A stretch of 64,000 bases of DNA from a virus (Duplodnaviria > Heunggongvirae > Uroviricota > Caudoviricetes): positions 16,405 through 80,404 of IMG/VR virus record IMGVR_UViG_3300047567_000058. The stretch is one strand, 5' to 3'. The notes below the pieces were generated by a model. The model was not told the DNA's origin. It saw only the letters and a list, made by a program, of their open reading frames with translations, and did not search any database. Below, piece after piece: positions 9,889-37,525 of the stretch; positions within the stretch are counted from its first letter, which is position 1, and every line of letters begins with the position of its first letter. The position numbers and the translations under genes were made by a program.

Positions 9889-10450
9889 TTTTATTTACTC
9901 CTTTCTGAAAAAAGGCAAAGCACGGATTAGATCAGTGCCCTTTCTTTCAACAAGATCATATATCCGCTATCTTGCATTTGACTAGACGGAAGCCGTATGG
10001 TAAAGTCTTATTGCAGGGATTGCTTGGCTAGGGTTTGATTTCTAGCGGGCTGACTTGCCGGCCGTGAACCTAAGACTTCTGGCATACGGCGGCCGTTAAA
10101 ACATGCGCTATACACGAAGGTAGCTTGCATGCTGCACAAATAGTCCAACTGCGTGATTCACGCCAGTGGCTGCGCTAAGTTGTCAAATTAGCATAGGATT
10201 TGTAGCATGCCTGATCATGCGCACAATGAGATCAGAGATCTAACGGGTATGGCCGAACTCTGAATCAGTCCGTATCAAACCGCTTTGCTTACGACAACTG
10301 CATAACAACGAGCCAGAAGCTGTATCCTATGCTGAATCCCCGGTCGTGAGCTGCATTCGTGCGGCATGGGGATCTTTTTTTTATTTTCCCCTGCTGGCAA
10401 AGGGGCCTCGAACAATAGATTATTGCAGACTAATTTGAGGCATCAAGATA

Positions 10451-13400
10451 ATGTTCGTATCACCGAGTAAGATGAAGTTGGATCGTATCCTTCTAGGGCG
10501 CACGATCAATTTCGACACAGAGAGAAAGATGTACGGAAATCTTGTGGTTCTGGCCACGGATTCTTATGACGACATAGCTTCGGTGATGACTCAATATGCT
10601 GTTTAGGCCTCAGCAGCTTTACTGCATGTACACGCCTCGTGTGGTCCGCCCTTTAAACAGAAAGATCGTTCGCGAGGATCAAGCTGCCGTTTATGCCTCG
10701 CTCAGAGACAAAAGCTCCGGTAGATTAAAAATTGGAAAGCCATTTGTCACATCGTATGCCGAGAAAAATCTGGTGTACGATATGATTCCTGATTTCAAAG
10801 AAACCCTTGCTCTTCGTGAAAACAAGCAGGGATTTGCAAGGTATATCGCGATGAAGGACTTCCTGGAAGAGTTCCTTCCTGAAGCTGTTTCCTCAGTAGG
10901 ATATCAGAAGAATTATTTGATTTTCCCTATTTGCGACTATTCTGACAAACTCGGATCAGTCGCCAAAATGGGATTGTTTGACACAAGCGTTGAAGGACGT
11001 GACCCCTATGTCATTATTCCTTCTTACGCTCAGAAAAGGCCTTGCCGATATGTCCGTCTATAAGATGTTCGACAGGATCATCTTCTATAATCCTAACAAC
11101 GAGGCTGTCGTGGTCATGGATCCGTCAGATCCGACTCTTGAGAAATCGATCAACGACTATCTCCTTAAGATATCGCGTCTCAATAACGCGAATATGGGAG
11201 AGGCCCTAGAAGGAGATGACGTCGATTCCGATGGATCTGATGAGGCTGATGACTCCGACAAGAGCGACGAAGCGAAGGAAAAAATAAAAAATTTCGTATT
11301 CACGTCAGTCTCTAAGTCACTTAAGATCAGAGCTCCTGAGACATTTGACGCCGCCACCAAAGACGAAGGAGACATCGCGGCTGTCGTCGATAAGAAGATC
11401 GACGGATATCTTTCCAAGAAAGAGAATGCCGGAAAGTCCTATGACGATCTAAAGACAACGATCGAAGCGGATCCCGATGTGAAAGCGGCTGCCATTAAGT
11501 ACGTCGAGACCAAGAAGAGCAACAGCCAAAAGCTCAATCAGCTTGCCAAGGGCCTTGAGAAAGAGGCCAAAGTCATAGATGATTTCGAAAAATCGTCTGC
11601 ATCCGATAAAGAAGAGCCGGAAGACAAATCGAAGCAAACTGCCGGAACCGCTGTAAAGCCATCGGTTCTGTCGGCTCTGAAATCCGCGGCGGCTGCGAAA
11701 TATGCCGCTAAAGACGATGATGAAAGCAAGGCTTCTCCTATAGCCGTCGATGCCGAGTCTCTCCTCGATGACAAGGAAATAGACGTCGATGTCGCCAACT
11801 TCGACAGCCGCGTTAGGCATAGCTCATTGATGGCGCTTGACGAAGACTATAACACCAAGCAGGCCAAGAAAGACCTGATGAGCATCCTCACCCATTTCTC
11901 AAACTCGCAGTTCCTTCCGATCGCGATGGACAGAATCAACATCGTTGACTCGAGCGATGACTTCAATAAGAAGATGACCCTTACGGCTCATTACAAAGCT
12001 GACGACGGATCGTCGCTTGGATTCACGCTCGACATCCCTGAGGTGATCGATGGCAGATTCATCTTCATCAACGGAAACAAGATGTTCATTCGAGAAGCAG
12101 CTTCTCCGTCTTCCTATCGTCAAGACCAAGCCAAACGTCGTCGAGATCTCGACATCATACAGCAAGATCACGGTTGAACGCACCAATGAGAAGGTTTCGC
12201 GCAGAAACGTCCGTCTTCTGAAGATGATCAAAACCGCCGAGCCTTCTGCCAAGGGATGGACTGTCCTTTGGGGAGACAATTCTGTCCATAACGACAGATA
12301 CGTCAGCGATTTCGAATATGAAGAGCTAGCGTCTAGCATCTCTTCGATTGACGCCCCGAGATACGATATCGACCTCGATCGTCAGCGCATCATGAGCAAG
12401 ATATCCGCGATGGACTTCCCAGACGGATTCTTCAAAGACGATTCGATGGACACCCCTATAGCGATCGAGAAGAACTCATCCAACGTCATTCACATCAAGC
12501 CTGACGGAGCTGTCTATCTGGCCATTCCGACTAAAGACGGAGGATCTATCGCGTCTGACAACAAAGCTGCCGATTGCATCCAGGCATTCGTTCTGGCTGC
12601 ATTGGGGCTGCAGAATGCGGATATCCCGTCTATCGGAAAGAGCTTCGTCTATTCGAGAGCCAAGATGATCGAGCAGTTCTATCCGATCTTCTCTCTGTGC
12701 GGATTCATGGAAGGAATCACCAGCGTTTTGAGAAGATACGGAGTCAAATACACGCTTTCAGACAAGCGCGACAGAACGCTTCTTTCCAATTACGTCGAGA
12801 TCCGTTTCAGGGATAAATATTTTTATTTCCTGGACAATCTCAAGAACACGATGCTTCTTAACGTCCTTCGCTTGATGGAGACCGACCAATACGACTTCAG
12901 AGACTTTGACACTGAGGATCCGTATGTCAATTTCTTCGTCAATGTCCTTGGCTACAACTCGTATGCCAGAAACACCATCAAGCTTCATCTGTCGGCGATG
13001 GTCGATCCCTATTACCTACGACGTTCAGAAAGATCTTAAGCAGCCTACGGATATCGTCGGGATGCTCTTATTCGCCAACACGCTTCTGACGACCAATACC
13101 CTGCCGATCGCTAAACGACGCCAAGAAACTACCGCATCAGAGGAAACGAAGAGATATACGCTGTTCTGTACAAAGTCCTTGCCGACGCATACAAGAACTA
13201 TCAGAACGGCCGCCTTAATGGGCACAGAGGAGGGCTTGATCTTCCTAAGAACGCCCTCATCAAGGCCCTGACCAACCAGGTAAACGTCAATCCGGCAAGC
13301 GTATTGAACCCGGTGCTTGAGCTTGAAAGCCTTTCAAACTGCACGCAAAGGATTCAACGGCGTCAACCTGGACAAGGCGTACACCATGAAGATGCGCGCT

Positions 13401-14792
13401 TATGATCCTAGCATGATCGGATTCCTGTCAGGAAACGACACTCAGTTCGGCGGAACGGCCGGAATGAGCCGATCGATTTCATATGATCCTAAGATCTCGA
13501 CGATCCGCGGATACATCCCAGACGTCGATAAGAGCAGTCTGTCGGCTACGAACATCCTAAGCCCTGCCGAGATGCTGGCATCGTTCGTGTCGGCTCAGTC
13601 GGATGCGCCTCGCTCAGCGATGCAGATTTCGCAGACTAAGCACACGATGCCCGTCGTCAAAGCCCATAAGCAGCTTGTCGGATCAGGAATAAATAAGACG
13701 ATGGCGTTCATGATATCCGATGACTTCTGCTTCAAAGCCAAGAAGAACGGAGTAATCAAGACAATCGACACCAATAAGCACATCGCCATTCTGGCATATG
13801 ACGATGGGACGAACGACGCGATCGATCTCGGCGACGTTCTCGTTAAGAACTCGAACAGCGGATTCTTCATCAAAGAGCACTTCCTCATCAAATACAGCCA
13901 AGGCGAGAGATTCAATAAAGGCGACGTCATTGCCTACAACCCGTCTTATTTCAGCGGAAAGGGAAAGGACATCGATTATATGCCTGGAACGCTTGCCAAG
14001 GTTGCGCTTGCCGCATCGGATGGCGCGTTTGAGGACTCGACGATGGTCGATGAGACTCTGTCAAACGAATGCGCGTCTTACTTCACGATGATGACATCTG
14101 TGGCGCTTGGCCCCAATGCGACGATCTACAGCACGGTTCATGCCGGAGACAAGGTTGAATCTGAGGATACCCTTCTGGAATACTCCAAGAGCTATCTCGA
14201 TCCATCGACTGCCGAATACATGAACAACATGAAAGATGTCTTGGGCGCCAATGCCGTGAACGAGATATCACGCGATAAGATCCTTTCTAGATACTCCGGA
14301 AGCGTCGTTTCTGTGAAGGTGTATTACAATATGCCTTTGGCTGAGCTCAGCCCGACCCTCAGAAAGCTCATATCGGAATACAAAGGCATCCAGCTTGACA
14401 GATCTGAGTTCCTCACCAAATACAACGTCCCTCATGGCGGAAGCGTGCATATAGACACGACCAACCAGATGGGAACCGACAGCTCAGGAAAGTCCAAGGT
14501 CAACGGAAGCCAGTATCAAGGCGTTCTCATCGAATACTACGTTGAGATACTCGACCCGATCGGCCCTGGAGACAAGATCACTTACACGAGCGCTCTCAAG
14601 GGAGTCGTGTCTAAGGTGTTTGCCGCAGGAGAATCTCCTACGTCGGAATATCATAGCGAGCTTCCATGCAACGCAGTATGCACTCCTACAGGAATATTAG
14701 GACGCATGACATCTGACTTCTTCTCATACCTCTACTCGAACAAAGTACTCGTTGAGCTAGGGCGGATGATAAAAGCCATCTGGGACTACTGA
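10451..14792 (+). CDS. homologue of multisubunit RNA polymerase beta subunit (RpoB-like, about 1440 aa), broken into at least 7 frame segments by single-base indels
   Basis: GRFIFINGNKMFI...QLLRLPIV matches the beta motif GTFIINGxERVIVSQLHRSPGV. SDAPRSAMQISQTKHTMPV matches NMQRQAVPL. PGDKITYTSALKGVVSKV matches the GDKxAGRHGNKGVVSK active-site region. Segments: 10451-10606, 10596-11063, 10978-12177, 12050-13039, about 13040-13112, about 13115-13330, 13317-14792. Confidence 0.65.
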
Positions 14793-16330: not shown

Positions 16331-16411
16331 GATTATCACTCCTACAGGAATATGATACGCCTGCGACGGCGCATAAGCAAAGAAAACAGATCTGTCTTCA
16401 GACCTGTTTTG

Positions 16412-22249: not shown

Positions 22250-22903
22250 TCACACTTTTCTCTGCAGGCTGTCCGAGTCCAGCTCAGCCTGGTCGGCGTT
22301 CGTGCTGATGCCGCATTTGATCATCAGAGACATCACGTCGGAAATCGGCTCTTTGAGAATGTATACGACTTTTTCGGATCCGCCGTTTCCGGAGATGATG
22401 ATGCTGCCTTCAGTGGCCATTTTCATCATTGCCTGGTCATCTACCGGGGATACGGTGGGCGATCCGCCTCCCAGCATGCTGGCAAGACGGCTGCACGCCG
22501 AATTCCTGTATGACGACGTGGTATATGACCAGTTTTGCGATTGGTTGTATGCCGTTTGATAGTTCTCTATCTTAGACTGGTAATCGCGAATTTCGTTTGC
22601 TTTGAAAATGAGAGCCGGCTCGATGCTGACGATGCTGTCCGTGTTGATGGCGACTTTGCCTATGGACACCTGCAATTGCTTGGATGACGTGCCGGACATG
22701 GATGAGCGGTCATGCGCGTGCATGACGCCGAATCCGTCGGCTGAGTTAATCTCAACCATGCATGGAAGCATCGAAGAATCCATGTCATCGGTTCCTCCAT
22801 ATGACCCATTAAGATTGCATGAGCACAGCTTTGAAATGCGCTCGTTGGTTCGTTGCACGTCAGCCATCGTTCTGATGGCGAGAGGATTGAAGTAAAAGAG
22901 CAT
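22250..22903 (-). CDS. hypothetical protein (217 aa)
   Basis: Start at M14 of the track ORF, after RBS agaaagaaggga. Confidence 0.45.
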   Translation of the reverse strand: MLFYFNPLAIRTMADVQRTNERISKLCSCNLNGSYGGTDDMDSSMLPCMVEINSADGFGVMHAHDRSSMSGTSSKQLQVSIGKVAINTDSIVSIEPALIFKANEIRDYQSKIENYQTAYNQSQNWSYTTSSYRNSACSRLASMLGGGSPTVSPVDDQAMMKMATEGSIIISGNGGSEKVVYILKEPISDVMSLMIKCGISTNADQAELDSDSLQRKV

Positions 22904-23035
22904 GTTGTCCCTTCTTTCTACGGGAATACGATACAATGGCAAAGGCCCGTTTTCAAGGAAAATAAAAAAATAAATCCAAGAATCGCCAATCCAGCAACAA
23001 TTGATTATCAGTATTTACAAGAGGATTACGGCAAT

Positions 23036-23984
23036 ATGGTCACACTCAGCGAAGACGCATTGAAGAGTTACATGATGAGCGAGGGGCTTGACCCATCGTT
23101 CTTAACCGTCGAAGATTACCTTCTGATGGAAGGGGTCTCTTTCAGCAAGCAGTTCAATCAGGCCAACGGCGCCAGCGCATACACGCTTGACGAATCGAAG
23201 GGAAACGGCAAAGCCATCGCGCTCGGAATCGCCGGGGCAGGACTTGCGGCAACGGGACTCGTCGGCGGAGCCGTCAACAACGTCAAGGCCAAGGACGAAT
23301 ACGTCAATAGAACCGAGACGTCAAACGTCGGCCGTCAGCTTGAGAAAGGCGAGACGAAGCCTTCCGACATCAAATCAGACGACGGAACCAAGACCCGCCG
23401 TATTCACCAATCCTGTCACCAAGGGAACCGTCAGGTCCGTCATGGATTCAGATCTTACAACGACGAGATCCAACGATTACGGCCAAACCACGTACACGGT
23501 TCCTATCGCTGGGACCAAGAGCGACAACCCGTATTCCACCGAGACGCAGCTCACCAACGTGAAGGCCATCGTCAAAAACGCGCAGAATGAGCTTGACGCG
23601 GCCGAGAAAGCCAAAGAGGAAGAGCATAAGAAGATCGGCACGCCTGATACCTCCGACGAGAAGATCGCATATGTCGACAAAAACGTTGAGAACGCATCAA
23701 GCAAGCTCGACAAAGCCAACAAATGGATGTATGGCGAGAGGCCGGACGGAACCGCCGGGACCGAGAAGGACAATGACGGGATGAACGGCTTGTACACCAC
23801 CGTCAAGAACATCAGCTCGACCGGATACGGCAAAGAGACCAAGGCGAAGTATGACACCAAGAACGCGATCGGCCATACGATGGAAGTCGGAGGGGCCGTC
23901 GCCGGGCTTGGTCTTGGGGCAGCCGCGGCCGTCGCGAAAGCGAGAGCCAACAAGCGAAAGAAGCAGATATCCGATCTCAAATAA
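23036..23984 (+). CDS. hypothetical Gly/Ala-rich, probably membrane-associated protein; one frame change (+1, extra C in accc) near 23394
   Basis: ATG at 23036 after RBS gagga. The N-terminal part reads in the frame of track ORF 22853..23590 and the C-terminal part in the frame of 23187..23984; both parts are protein-like. Confidence 0.4.
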
Positions 23985-24022: not shown

Positions 24023-24154
24023 TCAGTCTTTCTGGACTTCGGGGTCCGGGCTCATCGCCAGATCCATGGCGTCCTCGAATTCCTGCGGGTCGATCGTGGG
24101 ATCCTGAGATTCCGCTTCCTGGCCCATCGACTTCAGCTTGTCTTGGTCGTTCAT
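24023..24154 (-). CDS. possible small acidic protein (43 aa); its ATG overlaps the nrdD stop (ATGA)
   Basis: MNDQDKLKSMGQEAESQDPTIDPQEFEDAMDLAMSPDPEVQKD*. Confidence 0.2.
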   Translation of the reverse strand: MNDQDKLKSMGQEAESQDPTIDPQEFEDAMDLAMSPDPEVQKD

Positions 24155-27100
24155 AATCGATTCCTCACGCGTTGGAGCGCGATTTTATCCATCCGGCGAT
24201 CTCCGAGGCGTTTCTGTAGACGTCGAAACGAGGCCCCATCCGGGACGATCATCGTCGGGGCGGCGGTGATGCCGAACGCGTTGACCTGGTCGAGATGCGT
24301 CGACGCGTCGATGTTGTCGTACTTGATCCCGGCTTTGTCGAGCAGCATCTTCGCCATCTTGCAGTTCGGGCACGTCGGGTTGGTGAACAGCATCAGATGA
24401 TCGACTTTGGGCGCCTCGGCGGAAATATTTTTATTTTCCAGGGAGCAGGCGTTGCATCCGTCATGGACTTCCTCTTTCGAGGAATCGTATTCCTTGCGGT
24501 CATGGAACTCCTGCATCTTGCCGGCGTTCCAGTTCTTGAGCGGGCGGTAGTATCCGGTGATGCGGCTGTAGACCTCGGTCTCCTTGCCGCAGATCGGGCA
24601 CTTCCATTTCTCGCCGACGATGTAGCCGTGGTCGGGGCAGATGGAATAGGTCGGCGACATGGTGAAGTACGGCAGCTTGTAGTTCTCCGCGATCTTGCGG
24701 ACGAGCCTCATGCACGAATGCCAGTCGGGCAGACGCTGCCCGAGGAAGGCGTGGAAGACGGTACCGGAGGTGTATAGGGTCTGGAAGCGGTCCTCGACGT
24801 CAAGCGCGCTGAACATGTCGTCGGTGTATCCGACGGGGAGGTGCGAGCTGTTGGTGTAGTAAGGCGTCTCGCCGGATTTGCCGGCGGTGATGATGTCGGG
24901 ATACATTTCCTTGTCGTGCTTGGCGAGGCGGAAGCAGTTGTGCACCAGCACCGCGTCGTCAACGCCGCCGCTGATGAAGAAGTTGTGGTTGCCTTCGACT
25001 TCGAGATCGTAGACGTCTTCCCTCTCGGTGAGGTATTCGATCTTGACGATCTGATGGTTTGGAAGCAGGCCGGCATGCTTCAGGCGCGATTTGACGAGCG
25101 AGTAAGTGTAAGGCTCTCCGAGCTCTTTGGCGATTTCGCCGATGCTCTTGTTTTCCTTCCACTTGGCGATTATGGCGTCAGTCGAGCATTCAGGCATGTA
25201 TCTCGAATACTGCTCGAAGCTCTTTTTCTTATTCCCTTCAGACATCTTTCTGCGGGTGTCTTCGGATGCCATGTTCTCAAGGAACTTAGGATACCATTCG
25301 TCTTTGGTTTCCCTCTTCGTCTCGGAAATAAGCTCTTTTGATTTTTCGGTGTGATGCTTGCCGAAGAATGGGTTGGCGGAGCCGTCTACGCATCTTACAA
25401 AATTACGGCCTTCGTCATGCTCATGCAGCCGGCGGTGATCGGCATCCGACATTATCTCAAGGTTGTCTTTGGCGTTGTTGGTCTTGTCGAAATCCTTATG
25501 ATGGACTACGAATCCGTCTGGGATCTTGCCATAGTAATATTCAGCTAGAAGACGATGCATCGGGAAAGATCCTTTATTTTTGCCAAGTACGCATTCGACA
25601 TTGCGATACGTTTCTCCATATGCTTTAGAATTCTTAGTATAAACATGGCACGCGAATAATCTGTCTCCGACTTTTAAGGATCCGGCTTCGACGTAATCGA
25701 TCCAGCATTTGCGACTGGGACCGCATCCGGTGACGAACCGCTTCGCCATCTTATGGTTAGGCGTGACTTTGACGCTGTCGCCCATTGGAGAAGGTGATCT
25801 TCATCACTTCGGCGTCTTTCTTCGTCTTCCAGCAGTCGACGAGCTTCTTGAACTCGACTGAGTTGGTTTCGGCGTTGAATGACATGATGCCGATATTTTT
25901 ATTTTTATCGGCGATGATATCGTTGACGGTCATACGGCCTTTATCAGTCCAAACATTGGTGTCTCCTGAAACGCACGTTGACTCCGCCGGCGTCGCTTCA
26001 AGGTTGAAAAGTGTCGATGGATACTGGACTTGGTAGTCAGATAGCCGGTTGCGCATGTGATTGAGGACCTCGACGGTGAAGTCCTGGGCGTCCTTGTGCG
26101 TGAGGTCGTCTTTCAGCCATTTGGCGTTGAGACAGGCTTCGTTCATGCCGACGAGGCCGATCGTCGAGAAATGGTTCTTGAACGCGGTTTCGCCCAGATA
26201 GCGCTTGGTGTACGGATAGAGGCCACGGTTATAGAGGTCGGTGATTGTTCTTGCGCTTGATCTCAAGCGAGCGGGCGGCGATGTCCATCATGTGGTCGAG
26301 CCGGGCGTAGAAGTCGTCTTTGTCGGCGGCGAGGTAGCCGATGCGCGGCATGTTGATGGTGACGACGCCCGATACTGCCAGTGGATTCTCCGGCTCCGAA
26401 GAACCCGCCGTTGCGCTTGCGCAGTTCGCGAAGATCGAGGCGAAGACGACAGTTGTGAGTCATGAGACCTGATGCCAAAGCGAAAACATGATCGTCGCTG
26501 TCTATCTCCAAGCAGTAAAGAAAATCACTTGATGCGTCATTGGTTTTCTCTATCGACACTATCTTGTAATAATTGTAGGAATCGTCTTGATCGAAAAGCT
26601 CGCCATAGCGCTCGCGATCCGGGAAGTCAATTCTGTAATTCGGCTTGTCGGATAAGCGACTTTCTCTGTTGTCGACGTAGTTTGACAAAGCTTTGTGCCC
26701 CATGGATGCCAAAAGTTTCATCACATCGTTTTTCATCGTTTCCGATGAAGTGTATATCCTCTTTTTCTCCTTCGACCCATCGCTGGCTCTCAAACCCGAT
26801 ATGAATCCTTCTTTGAATTCGTTCGAAGCATTGAAACAACGATTGGAAAGCTTCTTCGTCAAAGCATCGCCATCGATGTATTCCGACACAATGGCGAACG
26901 GGTTCTTATCGACTCTGACATATTCCACTTTTTCGGAAACCGTCGTTTTCACCGGATAGCCTACTCTGTTCCAGAAAGCCGTGAGGCGCGAAACCGTGTC
27001 TTGATCGACATCGACATTAAGAGAATAAACAACTGCTCCTTCGTCGTGACTTCCGTCTCCTGCGTAAGCACCTATCGCAAAACCGAGGTCGGAATCACCG

Positions 27101-29969
27101 AGCCTTTCCGTCTCAATCGGGGTCTTGTTGAAAGGAAGCCAGTCGCCGACTTCGAGATCGCTCGCTTTCAACGTTCCTCTATCCTTTGTCGGCTGAAGAT
27201 GGTTTTCGCCCATTTTGACGGTCGTTCCGTTCGAAAGGACGATTTTGAAAACCGGTGTCATCGGCATCTGAACCGGATGGCCTGACACCCATTTATGCCC
27301 ATTCCAGAAAAGATAGTTCGTTTTCTTGAGATTGTATCCATCATAAAGAGTTCCTATCTTTCTGACGACGATTCCATCACGCGAGTTTTTGACGAGAATC
27401 TCGGTGTCTGACGTCAAAGGGCACATACTCCTGCAATCTTGAGGATTCATCGAACTATTTATGTAGTTTGAGAAATACGGGATGCCGTATTTGGCCGCCA
27501 TCTCAAACAGCAAACGGTTGTTCTCGGTATCGGACCAGTCGAAGCCTTTGGTGATGGAGTAAGTCGGAATCGGGTATTGGAAGCCGCGCCCATTGGCATC
27601 GCCTTCGATCATCGTTTCGATGAAGGCCTTGTTGACCATGTCGGCTTCTTTTCTGGCATTCGCCATACGTGAAGTCCTGCATCTTGCCTCCGACAACGGC
27701 AGGCAGGTTCTTCAGATCGTCAGGAACGACCCAGTCGAGCGTGACGTTCGTGAATGGCGCTTGGCATTGTCCTGAAATGAAAACGCATCCGTTCTTTCTG
27801 AAAATGGCTGTTCCGGCGTCGTCGTTCGGACACCATACAAGACCGTCATATTGAATGGCTTCCCTATGTTTTGGCTGGATGTTTTTGACGTCATGAACGC
27901 GGACGTAGTTCGCTTTACTCGTCTTTTTCTTGAAACTCAAAAATCCGGCTCTCAATGCTATTTCTTGAAGCCTGTCCGCTATTTCGTCATTGTCGTACTG
28001 AAGTTTGAATTTTTCGAAATCTCCGTCGAAACTCGACCACGTTCTAAGGAACAGCTCCGATTGCCTTCTGCTCATTTTGACGAACTTGTCATCAATGGCT
28101 TTTTTGGTTCCGCCAACGAGTTCGAAAATCTTTCTTGCTGAGTCACCGAAGAAGACGTATTTATTTACTGGAGTATCAAACCCGCCTTTTACTTCGCAAA
28201 GCGAAAAAGCTAGAGAAAGCGAATTTGCCACATTTGCGATGTCGGCGTTTCCTGGCCTTTTCGGAGATTTGTATATCGTTATTTTGTGAATCGATCCGTT
28301 TCTTACGTCTATGCTTCCATCGGTATAGACCATCGCCGCCAGTTTTATCTCGTCATCGCTCAGCCCGCATTCAGGCAAATCGTTGCCCGAAAAAGATGCT
28401 GGGAGGTAATAAGAAGTCTTGACACTGAAAATGTCAGACGAATGTTTGATTTCGTATTCGTTCAAATTGAATTTTTTGACAAGAATACGGTGCTCAGGTG
28501 TGACGGTTTGCTCGTATCCGGCTCCAAGATAGCGGTGCATCTCGCCTTTGTACGGTTTCACGACGACTTCGTTGACCTTTTTGGTCGTCAGCGTCCCATT
28601 GTCCCAAACGTAAATGTCATCGCCTTTTTTAAGCTGATCGTATTTCTTCCATCCACCGGTCGACAGCACTTCGGTGTCCGTGTCGACACAGCCCCATCTG
28701 GACGGGGTGTTGACACCGAAGATGAAGCTCTGAATGGCTTGCTTAACTTCTTTGTATGACAGATTGTCCTTCTTGACGAACGGGGCCAGGTACGTGTCAA
28801 AGCTCGAGAACGCCTGAGCACCCGACCATTCATTTTGTAGGCAATTTCTCGCACAGATACTGGTGTCTGATGATTCCGAATCGGTTACGAAGAATGCGTG
28901 AAAATCGTTATGGACGGTTCCGCAATAAACATCGGATGTCTGATTGATAATTCTCTTAGATACGATTTTCATACACTCTCCGGTGTCTTTGCAAGTGAAT
29001 TTGTACACGTACATAACCTTTGAGTTGTATTGAAGGACGTCGTCGTCTTCGGTTAAATCCTGCGCCTCAACCCATCCACGGTTAAGCGTATAGAATTTAT
29101 GGTCAAGAGTGCATTTGATCTTATGGCCGTCTTCGGTCGTGAGCTCAATGAGCTGACTAACGGTTCTCGTCTTATGCAAGTTATCCATCTTCGACGCGAC
29201 GTATTTGCCGGTGTTGGGATCGAATGACCTGACCATGAATTCTGTCTTTCCTGAATCGAGCATCTCGCGGATGCTGTGATTAGTCCCATCGGCGAACACG
29301 ATTCTGGTATCGTCGGTGAAGCAGCCCAAGAAATTGACCATCTGGTTGCAGAGAGTCGAAAGATGGCTAGCCGGGGTAGACGCGATCTTGCCCGGGACTC
29401 CGCCGAGGCCTTCGTTGATCAACTGCTTGAGCGACCAGCCTGCGCAATAACCGTTCAATAAGCTAAGGTCATGCAGGTGAAGATCCGCGTTTCTGTGCGC
29501 GTCGGCGATTTCCTTGTCGTAGATGTCGTTGAGCCAATAGTTGGCAGTGACCGCTCCGTTGTTCGAGAGCACGAGCCCTCCGAGCGAGAAGTTGACGGTT
29601 GCGTTTTCCTTGACGCGCCAGTCGTTCTGGCCGAGGTAGTCGTCGACGAGCTTCCCGTAGTTCAGCCCGTTTCTCATCTGGGCGTGCTTCTCGCGGTATC
29701 TGGCGTATGCCAAAGCGGTCTGCTTGTGGCCCGTGTCGATGAGCGCGAGCTCGACCCCGTCCTGGATGTCTTCGATCCCGACGGAATTATTTTTTTATTT
29801 TCCCGGAGAACTCGTCCAGGGCCTTCTCGGCGACGATGCTGGCGTTCTTCTCGCCTTCCGCGTCATGGGTCTCCTGGCAGGCGCGCGCAATGGCGCGTTC
29901 GATCTTCTTGATATCGAAATCCTCGACGCTATCGTCTCTTTTGACTACTTTCAGCTCGGCTGTTTCCAT
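24151..29969 (-). CDS. nrdD: anaerobic (class III) ribonucleoside-triphosphate reductase NrdD with N-terminal ATP cone, four inteins and a fused C-terminal glutaredoxin-like domain
   Basis: ATP cone (VVKRDDSVEDFDIKKIERAI). NrdD core blocks (LYNRGLYPYTKRYLG, NHFSTIGLVGMNEA, TGSIGVVTINMPRIG). Glycyl-radical C-terminus RITGYYRP with a CPICG zinc ribbon, then a CPNC thioredoxin-fold domain. The reading frame passes through track ORFs 29787-29969, 27503-29713, 26263-27696, about 26270-26370, 25757-26266 and 24151-25785. Confidence 0.85.
24937..25975 (-). mobile_element. nrdD intein 4: about 330 aa with an HNH homing endonuclease
   Basis: Starts CVSGDTNVWTD. Block B is GDSVKVTPNH. HNH motif HHKDFDKTNNAKDNLEIMSDADHRRLH. 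Block F is DVYDLEVEGNHNFFISGG. Ends AVLVHN, followed by Cys. Confidence 0.6.
26452..27423 (-). mobile_element. nrdD intein 3: about 324 aa with a LAGLIDADG homing endonuclease
   Basis: Starts CPLTSDTEILV. GFAIGAYAGDGSH and EGFISGLRASDGS match LAGLIDADG. Block F is FLYCLEIDSDDHVFALASG. Ends LMTHN, followed by Cys. Confidence 0.6.
27767..28690 (-). mobile_element. nrdD intein 2: about 308 aa with a LAGLIDADG-type homing-endonuclease domain
   Basis: Starts CVDTDTEVL. LAAMVYTDGSI and LRAGFLSF match LAGLIDADG. Ends ...NGCVFISGQ (C-terminal Gln), followed by Cys. Confidence 0.5.
28844..29323 (-). mobile_element. nrdD intein 1: mini-intein of about 160 aa with no endonuclease domain
   Basis: Starts CFTDDTRIVFADG. 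Block F is DVYCGTVHNDFHAFFV. Ends ...SICARN, followed by extein Cys. Confidence 0.55.
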
Positions 29970-30269
29970 GTGGTGTTAACCTTCCTCTAAAAAAATGGTG
30001 TAATGCTTTGTTCGGGGCCGGATCGGTTTATATCCAAGACGGTTTCTTCTTCGAGAATCGTCCTCTTATGCGAAAAAAAATATTTTCCAGAAGCCCTTCC
30101 CAAAAAAAGAAACGCATGCATGATATTGTCATTCAGGCGCTCCTTTCTTTTGCGCGGACTCATCATAAACCACGGCGGGGAGATAGTCAAGAAAACGATT
30201 GGCGGATATGACCGTACCAACCGCTTCTTCACCGCTTTGGCTTAGACGACAATGGCGCATGAGAAGATA

Positions 30270-31331: not shown

Positions 31332-32639
31332 TCAGGCTCCTGCCGAGCTGGAGCTGGTGCTCGAAGAGCTCGACGCTCCGTTGGCGAGAAGCGATCCGAT
31401 GAGGGCGCTGAGCTGATCGGAGGTGAGAACTTCCGGGAGCTTGCCGTCCCAGGTATCATAGAAGATGATGCCAAGGATAAGATTGGCGCACTTGGAATAA
31501 GTGAGCGTCTCCTTGGACGATTCGACCGGCTTGAACGATGTGACGTAGCCGTCCTTGTCGACGACGATGTCGGCGTCGGCCACTCCGTTGACGGAGCAGT
31601 ACAGCCGGTTGATCATCGACTCAACGGATTTGATGTAAGCCGCGGAAGCGTCTCCTGCGGCCTTGCCTTTGACGGTGGTCGCATAGGCGTCTGCGTCGGC
31701 GAGCGTTCTCTGGACGGCGGCGTCTGACGCGGCTTTGATGCCGGCGGCCTGGGCCTCTTCCTGAGCGATCTCGATCTGCTTCTTCGCCTCGGCTTCCTTC
31801 TTCAGGATCGCCTCGATCTCGGATCCGGCGTCGATGTCGTCAAGCGACGCATTGGTGACGGTGACGTAGTATTGCTCTTTCATGGCGACGATGAATTTCG
31901 TCTGGAATTGGGAGTTGGCGTCGTTGAACTTCGTCGAAAGAAGCTCGAAGATGGTGTATTGGGGCGTGACTTCCTTCATCACGTTCTTGATGATCGACTT
32001 GATCGCGTCCTCCGGCATCTTGCTCGCTTGCGTGATGCGATAGAACGACTGGGCGTTGTCTTTGGTGATGTGATAGATCAGGCTGATCTCAAGGCTGGCG
32101 TATTGGCCATCCATCGTCTGGCAGGTTAGGCTGTCGTTCTTCGTCTCGTTGCTCTCGAGATGAACGACGACGTTGGTGGTTGGGATCGTCGTGACGTGCT
32201 GGAAGATAGACTTGGAATGGAATCCTTCGCCATAAGTCCAGTCCTGGATGCCTCCGTTCAGCTCATCGTAAACGATGCCGACCTCATTCGGGCCGACCTT
32301 GGTGAACGAATTGCAGAGCGGGATGATCCCGATGAGTAGCCAGACGAACGCGAGGCCGAAATATTTTTTATTTCCCTTCGGGGCGTTCTTCTTGGCGGCG
32401 GCGGAATTCTTGTATCCTTTGTAGAACTTGACGAAATCGGCTGTGTATTTGTTGCCGTATGTCTTGATGGGATTGCCGGGATAGACCTTGGCGTATTCCT
32501 CTTCGGCCATGGACACGAGCGTGTTGCCGCTGGAATCCTCGGCGTCTTCTTTAGAACGATTGTACAGATAAATGGCTGCGATCAGCCCGGCGACCAATAA
32601 CAGGACGCCGAACACGATCGTGCAGATCAATGCTGTCAT
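31332..32639 (-). CDS. SPFH/band-7 (HflK/C-, stomatin-like) membrane protein, 435 aa
   Basis: Two N-terminal TM segments. SPFH core VGPNEVGIVYDELNGGIQDW...VVVHLESNETKNDSLTCQTMDGQYASLEISLIYHI. Coiled-coil/Ala-rich C-terminus. Confidence 0.6.
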   Translation of the reverse strand: MTALICTIVFGVLLLVAGLIAAIYLYNRSKEDAEDSSGNTLVSMAEEEYAKVYPGNPIKTYGNKYTADFVKFYKGYKNSAAAKKNAPKGNKKYFGLAFVWLLIGIIPLCNSFTKVGPNEVGIVYDELNGGIQDWTYGEGFHSKSIFQHVTTIPTTNVVVHLESNETKNDSLTCQTMDGQYASLEISLIYHITKDNAQSFYRITQASKMPEDAIKSIIKNVMKEVTPQYTIFELLSTKFNDANSQFQTKFIVAMKEQYYVTVTNASLDDIDAGSEIEAILKKEAEAKKQIEIAQEEAQAAGIKAASDAAVQRTLADADAYATTVKGKAAGDASAAYIKSVESMINRLYCSVNGVADADIVVDKDGYVTSFKPVESSKETLTYSKCANLILGIIFYDTWDGKLPEVLTSDQLSALIGSLLANGASSSSSTSSSSAGA

Positions 32640-34544: not shown

Positions 34545-35234
34545 TTATTTCCCAGACTGCTTGGCTTTGCGCTCGGCATTCTGGACGTATCGCTTGCGGA
34601 GCTTAGACACGTCGTCGCTGTTGAAGACGAGCGGCTTGCCATACTCCATGACCGCGTCGGCCAAACCGTATTTGACGGTCTCTTCGGCGGACATGTTGTT
34701 GTCGCGCTGGGTGTCGGCGTTGATCTGCTCATAGGTCTTGCCGGAGTTGTCCGCCAAGAGATTGAGGCATGCGTCATTGAGCATGTGCATCATCTTCTGG
34801 CTGGCATCGGCGTCGAGGACGGTCTCCATTTCGTTCTGATGATACGTGCGGCCCTGATGGATCAGGACGAACCCGTGTTTCTGAACGAGCCGGTAATCGC
34901 CGCTCGAGAAGATGACCGCCGCCATCGAGGCGCAGAAGCCTTTGCAGACCGTGATGATCGGCGCTTGGATCTCCATCATCTGATCGACGATGGCGAGCCC
35001 TGCCGTGATATCGCCTCCGCCCGACATGATGTCGAGCTCGATAGGCTTCTTTGGATCTTTCTTGCTGAGGTTCTTGAGCTCCGCGATGACGAGGCTGGCG
35101 GATTGCTCCGACACCTCGCCGTAAAGCAGAACAACACGATCCTTATACAAGGAAGTCGCGATAGAATCTTGGAATGTGACGGCCTGCTGTTCAGGCTCGT
35201 ATCCTTCCATAACTGGCTTTGACATAACGATCAC
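34545..35234 (-). CDS. clpP: ClpP-family serine protease subunit
   Basis: Catalytic Ser in CKGFCASMAAVIF, His in VLIHQG, GGGDITAGLAIVDQM. Stop overlaps the upstream gene by 4 nt. Confidence 0.75.
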   Translation of the reverse strand: MIVMSKPVMEGYEPEQQAVTFQDSIATSLYKDRVVLLYGEVSEQSASLVIAELKNLSKKDPKKPIELDIMSGGGDITAGLAIVDQMMEIQAPIITVCKGFCASMAAVIFSSGDYRLVQKHGFVLIHQGRTYHQNEMETVLDADASQKMMHMLNDACLNLLADNSGKTYEQINADTQRDNNMSAEETVKYGLADAVMEYGKPLVFNSDDVSKLRKRYVQNAERKAKQSGK

Positions 35235-37525
35235 TTACCTTTCTTGGCCGTGGCTTTGGACGCCGTGGCCAGCTTAGACGCCGCGAAGAGCTTAGCCGTT
35301 TCGGAGATCTGGCGCTCATATGCGGTCTGGATCTGGCTGCGAACAGCCTCGTCAAGCCCGCGGGCTCCTTTGTTCTCGATGTCGGCAGCGACCTTGATCG
35401 CGTCGATGTCTTCTTTGGTGAAGGCCACTTTGACCTTGCCTCCGGAGAGCGTCTCATACATCTCATGGTATCTCTTGATCAGCGAGTCGAACACGCGATC
35501 GTCAAGACGGTTGAAGATGACCACTTTGTTGATTCTCGCCTTGAACTCAGGCGGGAAGTACTTGGTGATCGCCATCTCAGCGTCGTGCTTGTCGTCCATG
35601 ACCTTGATCTCGCCCATGCCGCTCGTATTGGTCGATTCTGAATCGTATCCGAGGTTTGTCGTGAACACGATGATGGCGTTGCGGAACGAAACCTCGTCGC
35701 CATGAGAGTCATTCACGATGCCGTCGTCGAGCATGCTGAGCAAGGTCTTGAGCACTTTCGGATGCGCCTTCTCGATCTCATCGAAGAGAACGAGCGAGCA
35801 CGGATTGCGCTTGATGCTTGCGAGCAGGCCGGTGTCGTCATCATAGCCGACATAGCCAGGAGCGGAGCCGATGAGCTTGTTGTAGCTGATCTCATCCGCG
35901 TATTCGCCCATGCTCAGTTTGATGAGCGCATCGGACTTGCCGAAATAGTTCTTCGCGATGATGCGGGCGGATTCGGTTTTGCCGACTCCGGTCGGTCCGG
36001 CGAAGAGCATCGAGAGCATCGGCTTCTCAGGATTGTACAAACCAAGATCGATCGTTCTGAGAGACCAGGCGATCTGATTGATCGCTTCGTCTTGCCCGAG
36101 CAGCTTCTCATGCAGCGCTTTCTCGGTCTCGGTGGCATTGTCCTTCGAGACGTGGATTCCGTATTGCTGCGTGATGGCGTCGACCAAATCGTCTTTGGTG
36201 ACGTTCTTGTCTGCCGGATGAGTGACCTTCGCATAAGAATAAGCGAGGTCCATCATGTCGATCGACTTATCAGGATTTGCTTTGTTGAGCGAGTATTTCT
36301 TCGACAATGTCGCGATCTCGCTGACGATGTCGTCGGAGAGCGTCATGCCATAGAATTTGTCTTTGTCGCCGCGGATGCCAAGCAGGATGGTCTTGGTGTC
36401 TTCGTCAGACGGCTCTTTCACATGGATCTCGCGAAGCCGGCGGGAGAACCCGCTGTCCTTGGAGAAGTATTTGTGGAAATCGCTGTCGGTGATCGTCATG
36501 ATCATTGACACGCTTCCATCGGAAAGATACGGCTTGATGATGCTGATGATCGGAGATCCCATCTCTGCGATGGTGAACAGATACTGAGCCTCATCGACGA
36601 ACAAGATCGAATTATGGTCTGCGGCCGCGGCATCGAGAACGACGCCAAGGCGGCCTTCGATCATGCCGGGATAGGTTCCGCCAGCGGAGATCTTATCGAG
36701 ATTGAGACGATAGATATGCTTGACGTTGATGGCGGAAGGGGCTTTGCCAGCATTGATGCGCTGAGCCAAGTCATACACCGCCTCGGTCTTTCCGACGCCG
36801 GCCATGCCAGTGAGCACGACGCTGCGTTTGTTCTTTCCGATCAGGCCGACCGAGATCGACTTGATGAGATCGTCTCCGCCGACGATCGAATGCGGACAAT
36901 CGGCTACGAGAGCGTTGATGTCGGTGAGGAAATCGGTTTTCTCGCAGATATCAGCGATTCCTTGATTGCTCGATTTGGTCTCGGCGTCGGGCTTGAACAT
37001 CTCGATGAATTCATCGTACATGCTCTGGACTTTCTCCGGCCGCTTCGTATCGGTGAAAGCCTTGATGAAGATCTTTCTGAGATTGAACGGAGCTTTGTCG
37101 CTGTCGGCGAAGAGCTGGATCATGAGATTCGGAACCCCAAGCGTTCGGCTCTCTTTGATCGCTTGGCGCTGAAGCTTTGAGACAATGGTCTGGATATCGT
37201 TGTCAGAGCTCATCTCAGGATCGGTGCTTGGATCGATGATATGGCACTTCGGATAGATGCTGAACATCGCCGTGGCGAAAGCGAGATCCGACATTCCGTA
37301 CTTGGAAAGGATCGCTTGCATTTTGCCGAACAGATCGCTGTATTTGTCTCCGGATCCGGAGTGCTTGTTTAAGAAAGCCATGACTCCAAGATAAAGATGC
37401 TGAGTGCCGATCGTGGTATGGCCATAATCGCACGCGAACTTCACCATGAATTCGTTGAAGATGCTGTTGACATCGTCATCGATCGGAGAGGTCATGATGC
37501 TATCGTTATTGTCTTTTTTATTCAT
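35231..37525 (-). CDS. Clp/Hsp100-family AAA+ ATPase (ClpA/ClpC/ClpB-like, two AAA modules, N-terminal Clp_N-like region), 764 aa
   Basis: AAA-1: GKNKRSVVLTGMAGVGKT and ILFVDEAQ. AAA-2: LFAGPTGVGKTE and LVLFDEIEKAHP. Translationally coupled to clpP. Confidence 0.8.
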   Translation of the reverse strand: MNKKDNNDSIMTSPIDDDVNSIFNEFMVKFACDYGHTTIGTQHLYLGVMAFLNKHSGSGDKYSDLFGKMQAILSKYGMSDLAFATAMFSIYPKCHIIDPSTDPEMSSDNDIQTIVSKLQRQAIKESRTLGVPNLMIQLFADSDKAPFNLRKIFIKAFTDTKRPEKVQSMYDEFIEMFKPDAETKSSNQGIADICEKTDFLTDINALVADCPHSIVGGDDLIKSISVGLIGKNKRSVVLTGMAGVGKTEAVYDLAQRINAGKAPSAINVKHIYRLNLDKISAGGTYPGMIEGRLGVVLDAAAADHNSILFVDEAQYLFTIAEMGSPIISIIKPYLSDGSVSMIMTITDSDFHKYFSKDSGFSRRLREIHVKEPSDEDTKTILLGIRGDKDKFYGMTLSDDIVSEIATLSKKYSLNKANPDKSIDMMDLAYSYAKVTHPADKNVTKDDLVDAITQQYGIHVSKDNATETEKALHEKLLGQDEAINQIAWSLRTIDLGLYNPEKPMLSMLFAGPTGVGKTESARIIAKNYFGKSDALIKLSMGEYADEISYNKLIGSAPGYVGYDDDTGLLASIKRNPCSLVLFDEIEKAHPKVLKTLLSMLDDGIVNDSHGDEVSFRNAIIVFTTNLGYDSESTNTSGMGEIKVMDDKHDAEMAITKYFPPEFKARINKVVIFNRLDDRVFDSLIKRYHEMYETLSGGKVKVAFTKEDIDAIKVAADIENKGARGLDEAVRSQIQTAYERQISETAKLFAASKLATASKATAKKGK

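Follow-up and report, generated by a model that had tools for sequence, protein, structure and literature searches.

The window analysed here, a stretch of 64,000 nucleotides from a virus of the class Caudoviricetes (positions 16,405 to 80,404 of IMG/VR record IMGVR_UViG_3300047567_000058), carries on its minus strand a 5.8-kb nrdD gene for the class III (anaerobic) ribonucleotide reductase (RNR) of a phage whose genome measures about 219 kb. The gene starts with an ATG at 29969 and ends with a TGA at 24167..24165, and its 1,932-residue precursor combines four inteins, amounting to 1,137 residues in total, with a spliced extein of 795 residues, in which the reductase is followed by a redoxin domain. 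The features of the locus are the following, with arrows marking splice junctions.

24165..29969, minus strand: nrdD::redoxin precursor gene, complete; without six inserted bases it has 1,932 codons and a TGA stop
29690..29951, minus strand: ATP-cone domain, approximately residues 7-93, interrupted by frameshift 1
28844..29323, minus strand: intein 1 (I1), a mini-intein of 160 residues, Cys1...ARN↓Cys+1, at NFLG↓C(L/T)QNEW
27767..28690, minus strand: intein 2 (I2), HINT and LAGLIDADG domains, 308 residues, Cys1...SGQ↓Cys+1, at SRWG↓(C/T)QAPF
26452..27420, minus strand: intein 3 (I3), HINT and LAGLIDADG domains, 323 residues, Pro1...THN↓Cys+1, between the finger-loop cysteines of RSMC↓...↓CRLRLD
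24937..25975, minus strand: intein 4 (I4), HINT, HNH_3 and NUMOD3 domains, 346 residues, Cys1...VHN↓Cys+1, at AEST↓(C/A/S)(F/Y)RLAKHD
24553..24555, minus strand: glycyl-radical glycine G1804 in RITGYYR, aligning with the Gly loops of solved NrdDs
24454..24462, minus strand: Cys pair (GCNAC), a candidate electron shuttle, in the linker that joins the glycyl-radical to the redoxin domain
24168..24408, minus strand: C-terminal glutaredoxin/NrdH-like thioredoxin-fold domain, the last 80 residues, with CPNC at 24361-24372

Across the open reading frame (ORF) pieces of the gene, Pfam profiles identified ATP-cone, NRDD, Intein_splicing, HNH_3, NUMOD3 and Glutaredoxin domains, the NRDD profile coordinates being consecutive from piece to piece, and PF03477 matches both pieces of the ATP-cone, at profile positions 2-49 and 52-87. 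With NCBIfam NF006126 the extein, once spliced, reaches 1065.5 bits (cutoff 548; residues 7-690 of 795, profile positions 4-682 of 684) and with TIGR02487 518.8 bits (cutoff 326). Its homologues number thousands; the best 120, of 791-812 residues, are 70-75% identical to it over 99% of its length, are all intein-free and have the same ATP-cone-NrdD-redoxin architecture, and many of them lie on bacterial contigs. An earlier note, made from the sequence alone, had read here a class III RNR gene with an ATP cone, which the Pfam and NCBIfam matches support, and a CPNC thioredoxin-fold domain fused to it in frame; this domain indeed shares the frame of the last NrdD segment and, when the alternative of a separate ORF was checked, remained fused after sequence correction. 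The gene end proposed in that note, at 24151, proved to be an out-of-frame stop, and its figure of about 650 codons for the reductase plus redoxin is too low, the extein having 795 residues. Its description of a single gene holds for the contigs of other samples, on which the 1,932-residue frame is continuous, but the copy in the window is broken by six one-base insertions.

These six +1 breaks, at short base runs (29796, 27652, 26370, 26250, 25783 and 24228), divide nrdD into six reading-frame segments, visible as five large ORF pieces (29975-29790, 29794-27506, 27711-26266, 26287-25760 and 25800-24154) and a further part in the third frame at 26459-26232. The span given previously, 5819 nt, is not divisible by three, and had thus been read across the breaks. 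Comparison with contigs of the same phage population located each insertion, together with a seventh one outside the gene.

29790..29796, minus strand: frameshift 1, coding-strand A7 run, A6 in 5/5 compared contigs
27649..27652, minus strand: frameshift 2, coding-strand A4 run, A3 in 6/8 compared loci
26368..26370, minus strand: frameshift 3, coding-strand GGG, GG in 7/7 compared loci
26249..26250, minus strand: frameshift 4, one extra base, AAGAACA versus AAGACA in the others
25781..25783, minus strand: frameshift 5, inside intein 4, GGG versus GG
24226..24228, minus strand: frameshift 6, extra T in a T-run inside the redoxin domain, the tail being corrected from loci L017-L019
29989, minus strand: seventh window-specific extra base, coding-strand T7 versus T6, 20 nt upstream of the start codon

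A placement of frameshift 6 in a G4 run at about 24236 had also been considered and was ruled out by the comparison with L017-L019. The population was recognized from a Clp-type ATPase encoded at 35231-37525, whose protein sequence is identical on at least 16 contigs from independent samples, and the window is at least 99.8% identical to those contigs over the 63.3 kb compared. A single 1,932-residue nrdD product is called on two Joint Genome Institute (JGI) contigs, Ga0574372_00610 (103 kb) and Ga0558721_11144, and removal of the six bases makes the protein of the window identical to that of the population except for E1596D. The only substitutions in the whole of nrdD relative to the other contigs are six at third codon positions within 25162-25192 (31 nt, in intein 4), five of them synonymous and one changing E to D, a cluster with the look of a patch transferred by gene conversion from a different intein allele. 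A JGI contig of 219,300 bp has, as its called products, precisely the broken ORFs of the window, which places the breaks in the deposited assembly and puts the genome size at about 219 kb.

The extein has the catalytic residues expected of an NrdD, and their conservation was counted over 119 fusion homologues. The glycyl-radical motif RITGYYR is conserved in 118 of the 119; the thiyl cysteine C1173 (CRLRLD) is restored only by excision of I3, and the bottom-face cysteine is C175 (GYCAGW). Once spliced, C849 and C1173 form a vicinal CC pair, and E1323 (FNLEATPAE) aligns with E495 of Thermotoga maritima NrdD, the motif NLE being found in 118 of the 119 homologues. The NrdD2 subtype, as summarized in PMC4493059 (after Wei et al. 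2014), is recognized by a third active-site Cys and an active-site Glu; since the CC pair and the Glu are both found here, the enzyme is predicted to belong to the thiol-dependent NrdD2 chemical subtype. Its putative zinc site reads C-P-D-H...C-P-I-C (Cys/His/Cys/Cys), the first half being CPDH, CEDH or CKNH in homologues.

Alignment to intein-free homologues of 70-75% identity, which read NFLG(C/I)(T/M)QNEW, RWG(T/C)QAPFTN, RSMCCRLRLD and AEST(A/S)(Y/F)RLAKHD at the four sites, fixed the intein boundaries. I1 matches Pfam Intein_splicing with 49.8 bits (cutoff 35.8), its junction agrees with the intein-free homologue P0001, and a relative occupies the same site in P0261. I4 scores 66.9 bits with Intein_splicing, 51.2 with HNH_3 (cutoff 24.8) and 31 with NUMOD3 (cutoff 20.4), and a version lacking the HNH domain is found at the same site in P0014. 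I2 had no match in the Pfam search, and single-sequence searches of the PDB with I2 and I3 gave weak matches; a profile of the 14-member I2 family, however, matches solved inteins through the N-terminal splicing region. The AlphaFold2 model of I2 (mean confidence, pLDDT, 93.9) resembles in Foldseek searches TliVMA, PhoVMA, PI-SceI and PI-PfuI over its whole length and I-DmoI and I-SceI over the central domain, the E values of the I2 and I3 models against LAGLIDADG inteins ranging from 1e-13 to 6e-16, and its two LAGLIDADG motifs read LAAMVYTDGS and LRTWSSFDGD. The C-terminal residue of I2 is Gln (Q734, 27769..27767) in all compared contigs spanning it, and the diverged same-site relatives in P0160 and P0140 also end in Gln (...FISGQ↓T), other relatives ending in GN↓S; Gln is a recognized alternative to Asn as the C-terminal residue of inteins (PMC7664689).

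I1, I2 and I4 all have Cys1 and Cys+1, with block B motifs TLDH, TPEH and TPNH and C-terminal residues Asn, Gln and Asn, and on these residues they are assigned to class 1. As a separate observation, I1 and I2 have a Cys at block F:4 (DVYCGTV and LVWCPND) despite their Cys1, and both are without a penultimate His (ARN and SGQ). The Pfam matches, the family profile and the structural models bear out the earlier typing as a mini-intein, two inteins of the LAGLIDADG kind and one with HNH, and the Gln then noted at the end of one intein is that of I2; the proposed coordinates agree with ours for I1, I2 and I4, but not for I3, which starts at 27420 instead of 27423. The profile searches suggested at the time recover NRDD, Glutaredoxin, HNH_3 and the Intein_splicing regions of I1 and I4, but I2 is without a Pfam match and LAGLIDADG_3 in I3 stays, with 20.1 bits, below the cutoff of 22.5. 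The LAGLIDADG endonucleases of I2 and I3 and the HNH endonuclease of I4 would account for the spread of these elements. Three short-read contigs (L006, L005 and L004) end at 29990, 27312 and 26005, which is just upstream of nrdD, inside I3 and 30 nt before the I4 site, respectively; heterogeneity of intein content in the population, breaking assemblies, could explain these ends.

I3 is the most unusual of the four. Where homologues read SMCCRL (118 of 119), the precursor reads SMC-P...THN-CRL, so that the Pro is the first residue of I3, the Cys ahead of it being part of the extein; this start also brings its block A (PLTSDTEIL) into register with the CxxxDTxhh of the other three inteins. The earlier reading, with the start at the Cys at 27423, missed the absence of an N-terminal nucleophile. 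As its +1 nucleophile I3 has the thiyl-radical cysteine itself, and the intein has Cys at F:4 (26512-26514; FLYC(1152)LEID), Thr at G:5 (26458-26460; LMT(1170)HN), His at B:10 (27199-27201) and Gln at B:12, the last two in GENHLQ. A candidate block B with the His-x-Trp arrangement of class 3, NGHKW, was ruled out, since the family alignment and the model both place block B at GENHLQ. The AlphaFold2 model (pLDDT 92.2) matches TliVMA (6e-16), PI-TkoII, PI-PfuI, PI-SceI and I-DmoI in Foldseek searches, and the LAGLIDADG motifs are AIGAYAGDGS and ISGLRASDGS. By these matches the models of I2 and I3 both agree with the two-motif alpha-beta-beta-alpha-beta-beta-alpha fold of LAGLIDADG endonucleases, placed within the HINT domain.

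While a word-indexed protein search with I3 returned no relatives, an exhaustive HMMER scan found 540 related representatives, nearly all in NrdD and at the same site. Among those inserted between the two cysteines, all 52 members with Pro1 have Cys at F:4 and Thr at G:5; in the 50 with Cys1 the corresponding pairs are Cys/Thr (45), Asp/Thr (three), Ser/Thr (one) and Cys/Leu (one). Position B:12 is Gln in 33 and Asn in 20 of 53 Pro1 sequences, that of the window included, and Trp in none. The class 3 signature consists of a non-nucleophilic residue 1, a block-F Cys, a block-G Thr and Trp at B:12, and its prototype, the mycobacteriophage Bethlehem DnaB intein, has Pro1; residue +1 is usually Ser or Thr, with the Bvi IcmO intein as an accepted exception (PMC2807308). 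I3 is thus probably class-3-like in its mechanism, in which the block-F Cys would attack the upstream junction, and not a member of the group defined by the WCT motif.

The C-terminal domain scores 35.3 bits with Pfam PF00462, Glutaredoxin (cutoff 22.9), has the motifs CPNC, present in 119/119 homologues, and, for the cis-Pro loop, AAPT, and matches in sequence the PDB entries 2klx (a glutaredoxin) and 4fiw and 1r7h (NrdH). Against the NCBIfam equivalogs for NrdH, Grx3, YruB and MJ0307 it stays below all cutoffs, the best score being 31.8 with TIGR02194, NrdH (cutoff 85.75), and its sequence is best described as that of a generic glutaredoxin-like domain in a subfamily of its own. At least two cysteines are present in the linker of 107 of the 119 fusion homologues (90%), in variants such as CAC, CECC, CCC and CDGSC, a cluster that recalls the shuttle cysteines at the C-terminus of class I and II RNRs. 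On a 1.63-Mb Bacilli contig (Ga0455827_0001; locus L024, 6423-7993), an intein-free nrdD::grx is followed by a TrxB-like flavoprotein of 292 residues and by an NrdG2 activase of 231 residues, the latter above its profile cutoff, an arrangement that resembles a module dedicated to reduction and activation. The most likely role of the fused redoxin is to reduce the active-site disulfide again, perhaps via the linker cysteines. Electrons would run from NADPH to a TrxB-like protein, to CPNC, possibly to the linker cysteines and on to the active-site disulfide; a thioredoxin-reductase-like flavoprotein of the host would reduce the redoxin and the host NrdG would install the glycyl radical.

The explanation that best accommodates these results, and that we consider likely as a whole, is that the four inteins must excise from the 1,932-residue precursor, I3 by a class-3-type route, to give a 795-residue NrdD2 enzyme with the order ATP-cone, NrdD catalytic barrel, glycyl-radical domain, Cys-pair linker and CPNC redoxin domain, and that the frame breaks are artefacts. 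Several observations weigh against it. The penultimate His is absent from I1 (ARN) and I2 (SGQ), and splicing itself is a prediction; I3 lacks, at B:12, the Trp of class 3, and its +1 residue is Cys, not Ser or Thr; and the putative zinc site is C-x2-H...C-x2-C, not four Cys. The TrxB-like neighbour in the Bacilli contig scores 276 bits with TIGR01292, below the cutoff of 343, although its best match is still thioredoxin reductase. For NrdG, whose absence from the window had been noted earlier and is upheld here, and for a TrxB-like protein, no CxxxCxxC ORF and no tblastn match were found in the window and 7 kb of upstream flank, the remaining ~155 kb of the genome lying outside this search, nor were they found beside the nrdD::grx of a related phage (P0001). 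The indels are distributed unevenly, being dense in nrdD and in a 1,445-residue gene and absent from 30-64 kb, and one is common to another contig, a pattern that simple random error does not predict. The origin of the breaks was moreover judged from assembled contigs, and real frameshift mutations may be among them.

The breaks most likely represent homopolymer-length consensus errors of the deposited 219,300-bp assembly and not biology. The 15 window-specific insertions of the whole window all extend existing runs and are confined to 6.1-30.0 kb, with none in the 34 kb that follow, up to 64 kb. The 1,445-residue gene (10450-14790, plus strand), in which no Pfam domain was found, is intact in contigs of other samples and is broken in the window by insertions at 10593, 10995, 12089, 13007, 13099 and 13121 and deletions at 13345 and 13349, accompanied by three window-specific substitutions; an extra C at 23394 (CCC versus CC) splits a 376-residue gene, a single product on other contigs, into ORFs at 22853-23590 and 23187-23984 (plus strand). 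Two further long contigs, of 219,229 and 136,826 bp, have frameshifts of their own in nrdD and other genes, one of those in nrdD being common to the window and one lying at the same site with opposite sign: the 219,229-bp contig, from which loci L002 and L019 both derive, shares the extra base of frameshift 2 and is short by a further base at the site of frameshift 4. Indels peculiar to nrdD were ruled out by the full comparison, which shows them across 6-30 kb, the 1,445-residue gene included, and programmed frameshifting was ruled out by the six differing contexts, by their absence from otherwise identical contigs and by the similar breaks in unrelated genes. In a different type of event, a 3-nt in-frame insertion at 49749-49758 relative to 4/5 contigs, within the gene for a DUF2828/phrog_850 'RNA-binding protein' (48979-50604), looks like a true polymorphism between strains.

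The same breaks could alternatively be six real slippage insertions that inactivated nrdD in this phage lineage, perhaps because the reductase is dispensable. Such a pseudogene would fit the presence of the frameshifts in the deposited contig itself, as they were not introduced in the window, their concentration at nrdD (seven in 5.8 kb, against 34 kb of the window without any) and the nrdD frameshifts of the two other long contigs, one of them shared. It would, however, have decayed exclusively by +1 extensions of runs, free of nonsense or missense decay within the gene and with substitutions limited to five synonymous and one conservative, next to an intact allele that is otherwise 100% identical at the nucleotide level, and the similar indels in the 1,445-residue and other genes would, if real, make the phage defective in several genes together. 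The synonymous substitution pattern and the otherwise complete nucleotide identity fit long-read homopolymer errors better than gene decay, and we regard a genuine pseudogene as unlikely. Incomplete maturation of an intact population gene, with at least one splicing-dead intein and a role mainly as a vehicle for homing endonucleases, is suggested by the non-canonical terminal and block residues (ARN in I1, SGQ in I2, Pro1 without Trp in I3) and by the lack of an activase gene nearby. The atypical residues are nevertheless shared by diverged same-site relatives (Gln in three members, Pro1 in 52 representatives), which implies selection, the exteins are conserved at all catalytic positions, and inteins at catalytic sites must splice for the host gene to function (PMC7664689), so that this scenario seems quite improbable. 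Least credible, to the point of being very improbable, is that I3 is an ordinary class 1 intein starting at the Cys at 27423, splicing of which would leave RSM-CRLRLD with a single finger-loop Cys. A Cys does immediately precede the Pro, and Cys1 members do exist in the I3 family; those relatives, however, read ...C↓C...THN↓CRL, with three cysteines, the intein-free homologues have SMCCRL in 118 of 119 cases, the Pro start gives the block A register and the loss of one residue from the radical loop would remove the third Cys of NrdD2.

A phage origin of the window is supported by PHROGs matches to a virion structural protein, a DNA polymerase, a Clp-type protease and an HNH endonuclease. A megablast search of the gene against GenBank phages gave no match, and no relative emerged when IMG/VR was scanned with the N-extein; the intein-free phage nrdD::grx of P0001, 75% identical, also adjoins ClpP and AAA+ genes. 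The window further encodes a P-type (E1-E2) ATPase of 843 residues (2746-5277, plus strand), a ClpP protease with a Clp-type AAA+ ATPase of 764 residues (34545-37525, minus strand) and a Band_7/SPFH protein (31332-32639, minus strand), which are uncommon cargo for a phage.

For annotation, these results mean that what a long-read phage assembly presents as a 5.8-kb 'pseudogene' can be a gene of 1,932 codons that is intact, and that the fusion of NrdD to a redoxin, which the earlier note thought unusual, is no rarity: it is present in all 120 best homologues, many of them bacterial, and already bears a name, one homologue being called 'anaerobic ribonucleoside-triphosphate reductase/glutaredoxin' by JGI. 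For the biology of RNRs, a uniform fusion family with the CC pair, the Glu, the Cys-pair linker and CPNC, together with its TrxB-like and nrdG2 neighbours, amounts to a testable proposal for electron delivery to a thiol-dependent class III enzyme. For that of inteins, one precursor joins four of them, with three endonuclease states (LAGLIDADG, HNH or none), one Gln terminus and, directly before the radical Cys, an intein with Pro1, and offers a compact system in which to study splicing order, non-canonical mechanisms and possible redox control. The four inteins have Cys+1, three have a Cys at F:4 and one lies between two active-site cysteines; since all four rely on Cys nucleophiles, the redox state could gate how this oxygen-sensitive enzyme matures, in which case oxidation would trap the precursor and reducing, anoxic conditions would release active reductase. 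That maturation is gated in this way and that, in addition, I3 belongs to a large class-3-type branch dedicated to the Cys pair of the NrdD radical loop, undescribed in the literature searched, is a combination that we hold to be unlikely. The searches of the literature, of incomplete coverage, yielded no link of class 3 or Pro1 inteins with NrdD, which is weak evidence of novelty.

The gene is an extreme example built of known parts, its most interesting detail being the family of Pro1, Trp-less, class-3-like inteins at the radical loop. All four intein families and their insertion sites recur in other metagenomic NrdDs, and in a crude count over 150 I3-bearing representatives the relatives have zero to three large insertions each, four being found in this gene only; of the combination previously called unusual, the four inteins are therefore at the top of the range, while the fusion is common. 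Liu et al. reportedly described, in 2003, a class II RNR gene of cyanobacterial origin that holds four inteins. Further NrdD inteins, observed in P0130, P0134, P0135, P0159, P0160, P0124, P0126 and P0014, occupy the sites GY↓C (the bottom-face catalytic Cys, often with HNH), LQGE↓C, STG↓C...N↓S and LYTGG↓C, which gives NrdD at least seven intein insertion sites in metagenomic data.

Compared with the class 3 inteins MP-Be DnaB, MchDnaB1 and AceL NrdHF (PMC2807308; PMC7664689; PMC7891396), I3 shares Cys F:4, Thr G:5, His B:10 and the association with phages, and with MP-Be DnaB also the Pro1, but differs in the lack of Trp B:12, in its Cys+1, in the host protein, NrdD, and in the presence of a LAGLIDADG endonuclease. 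With the NrdD2 enzymes of Neisseria bacilliformis and T. maritima, as summarized in PMC4493059 and PMC4390871, the reductase has in common the third Cys beside the thiyl Cys and the active-site Glu (equivalents of C329/C330 and E495 of T. maritima); their reductant is a redoxin rather than formate, which is here predicted from sequence, and in contrast to them the present enzyme has its redoxin fused at the C-terminus and a Cys-pair linker. A fused redoxin was demonstrated to serve as the RNR reductant in the Grx-ATP-cone-NrdB of Facklamia ignava (PMC6187632), where it is N-terminal on a class I NrdB, whereas NrdD has it here at the C-terminus. In 2018 the grx::nrdD of Lachnospiraceae TWA4 was a single RefSeq case (PMC6187632), and the present fusion is far more widespread than that. 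Fusions in metagenome-assembled genomes of Bacilli and Candidatus Enteromonas (P0042, P0037 and P0064; NF006126), as well as the phage fusion P0001, are 70-75% identical over 99% of the extein and share the domain order, SMCCRL, the Glu of NLE, RITGYYR, the Cys-pair linker and CPNC, but are without inteins, and the bacterial gene adjoins those for TrxB-like and NrdG2 proteins whereas the phage gene does not. Inteins are known in nrdD of Clostridium phage c-st and Lactococcus phage 949 (PMC3653736), and nrdD of Jug phages is fragmented in 95 of 104 genomes (PMC12880540); these cases likewise show phage nrdD to be a hotspot for inteins, introns and homing endonucleases, but involve one intein, or introns and free-standing endonucleases, whereas the gene described here accommodates four in-frame inteins in one ORF.

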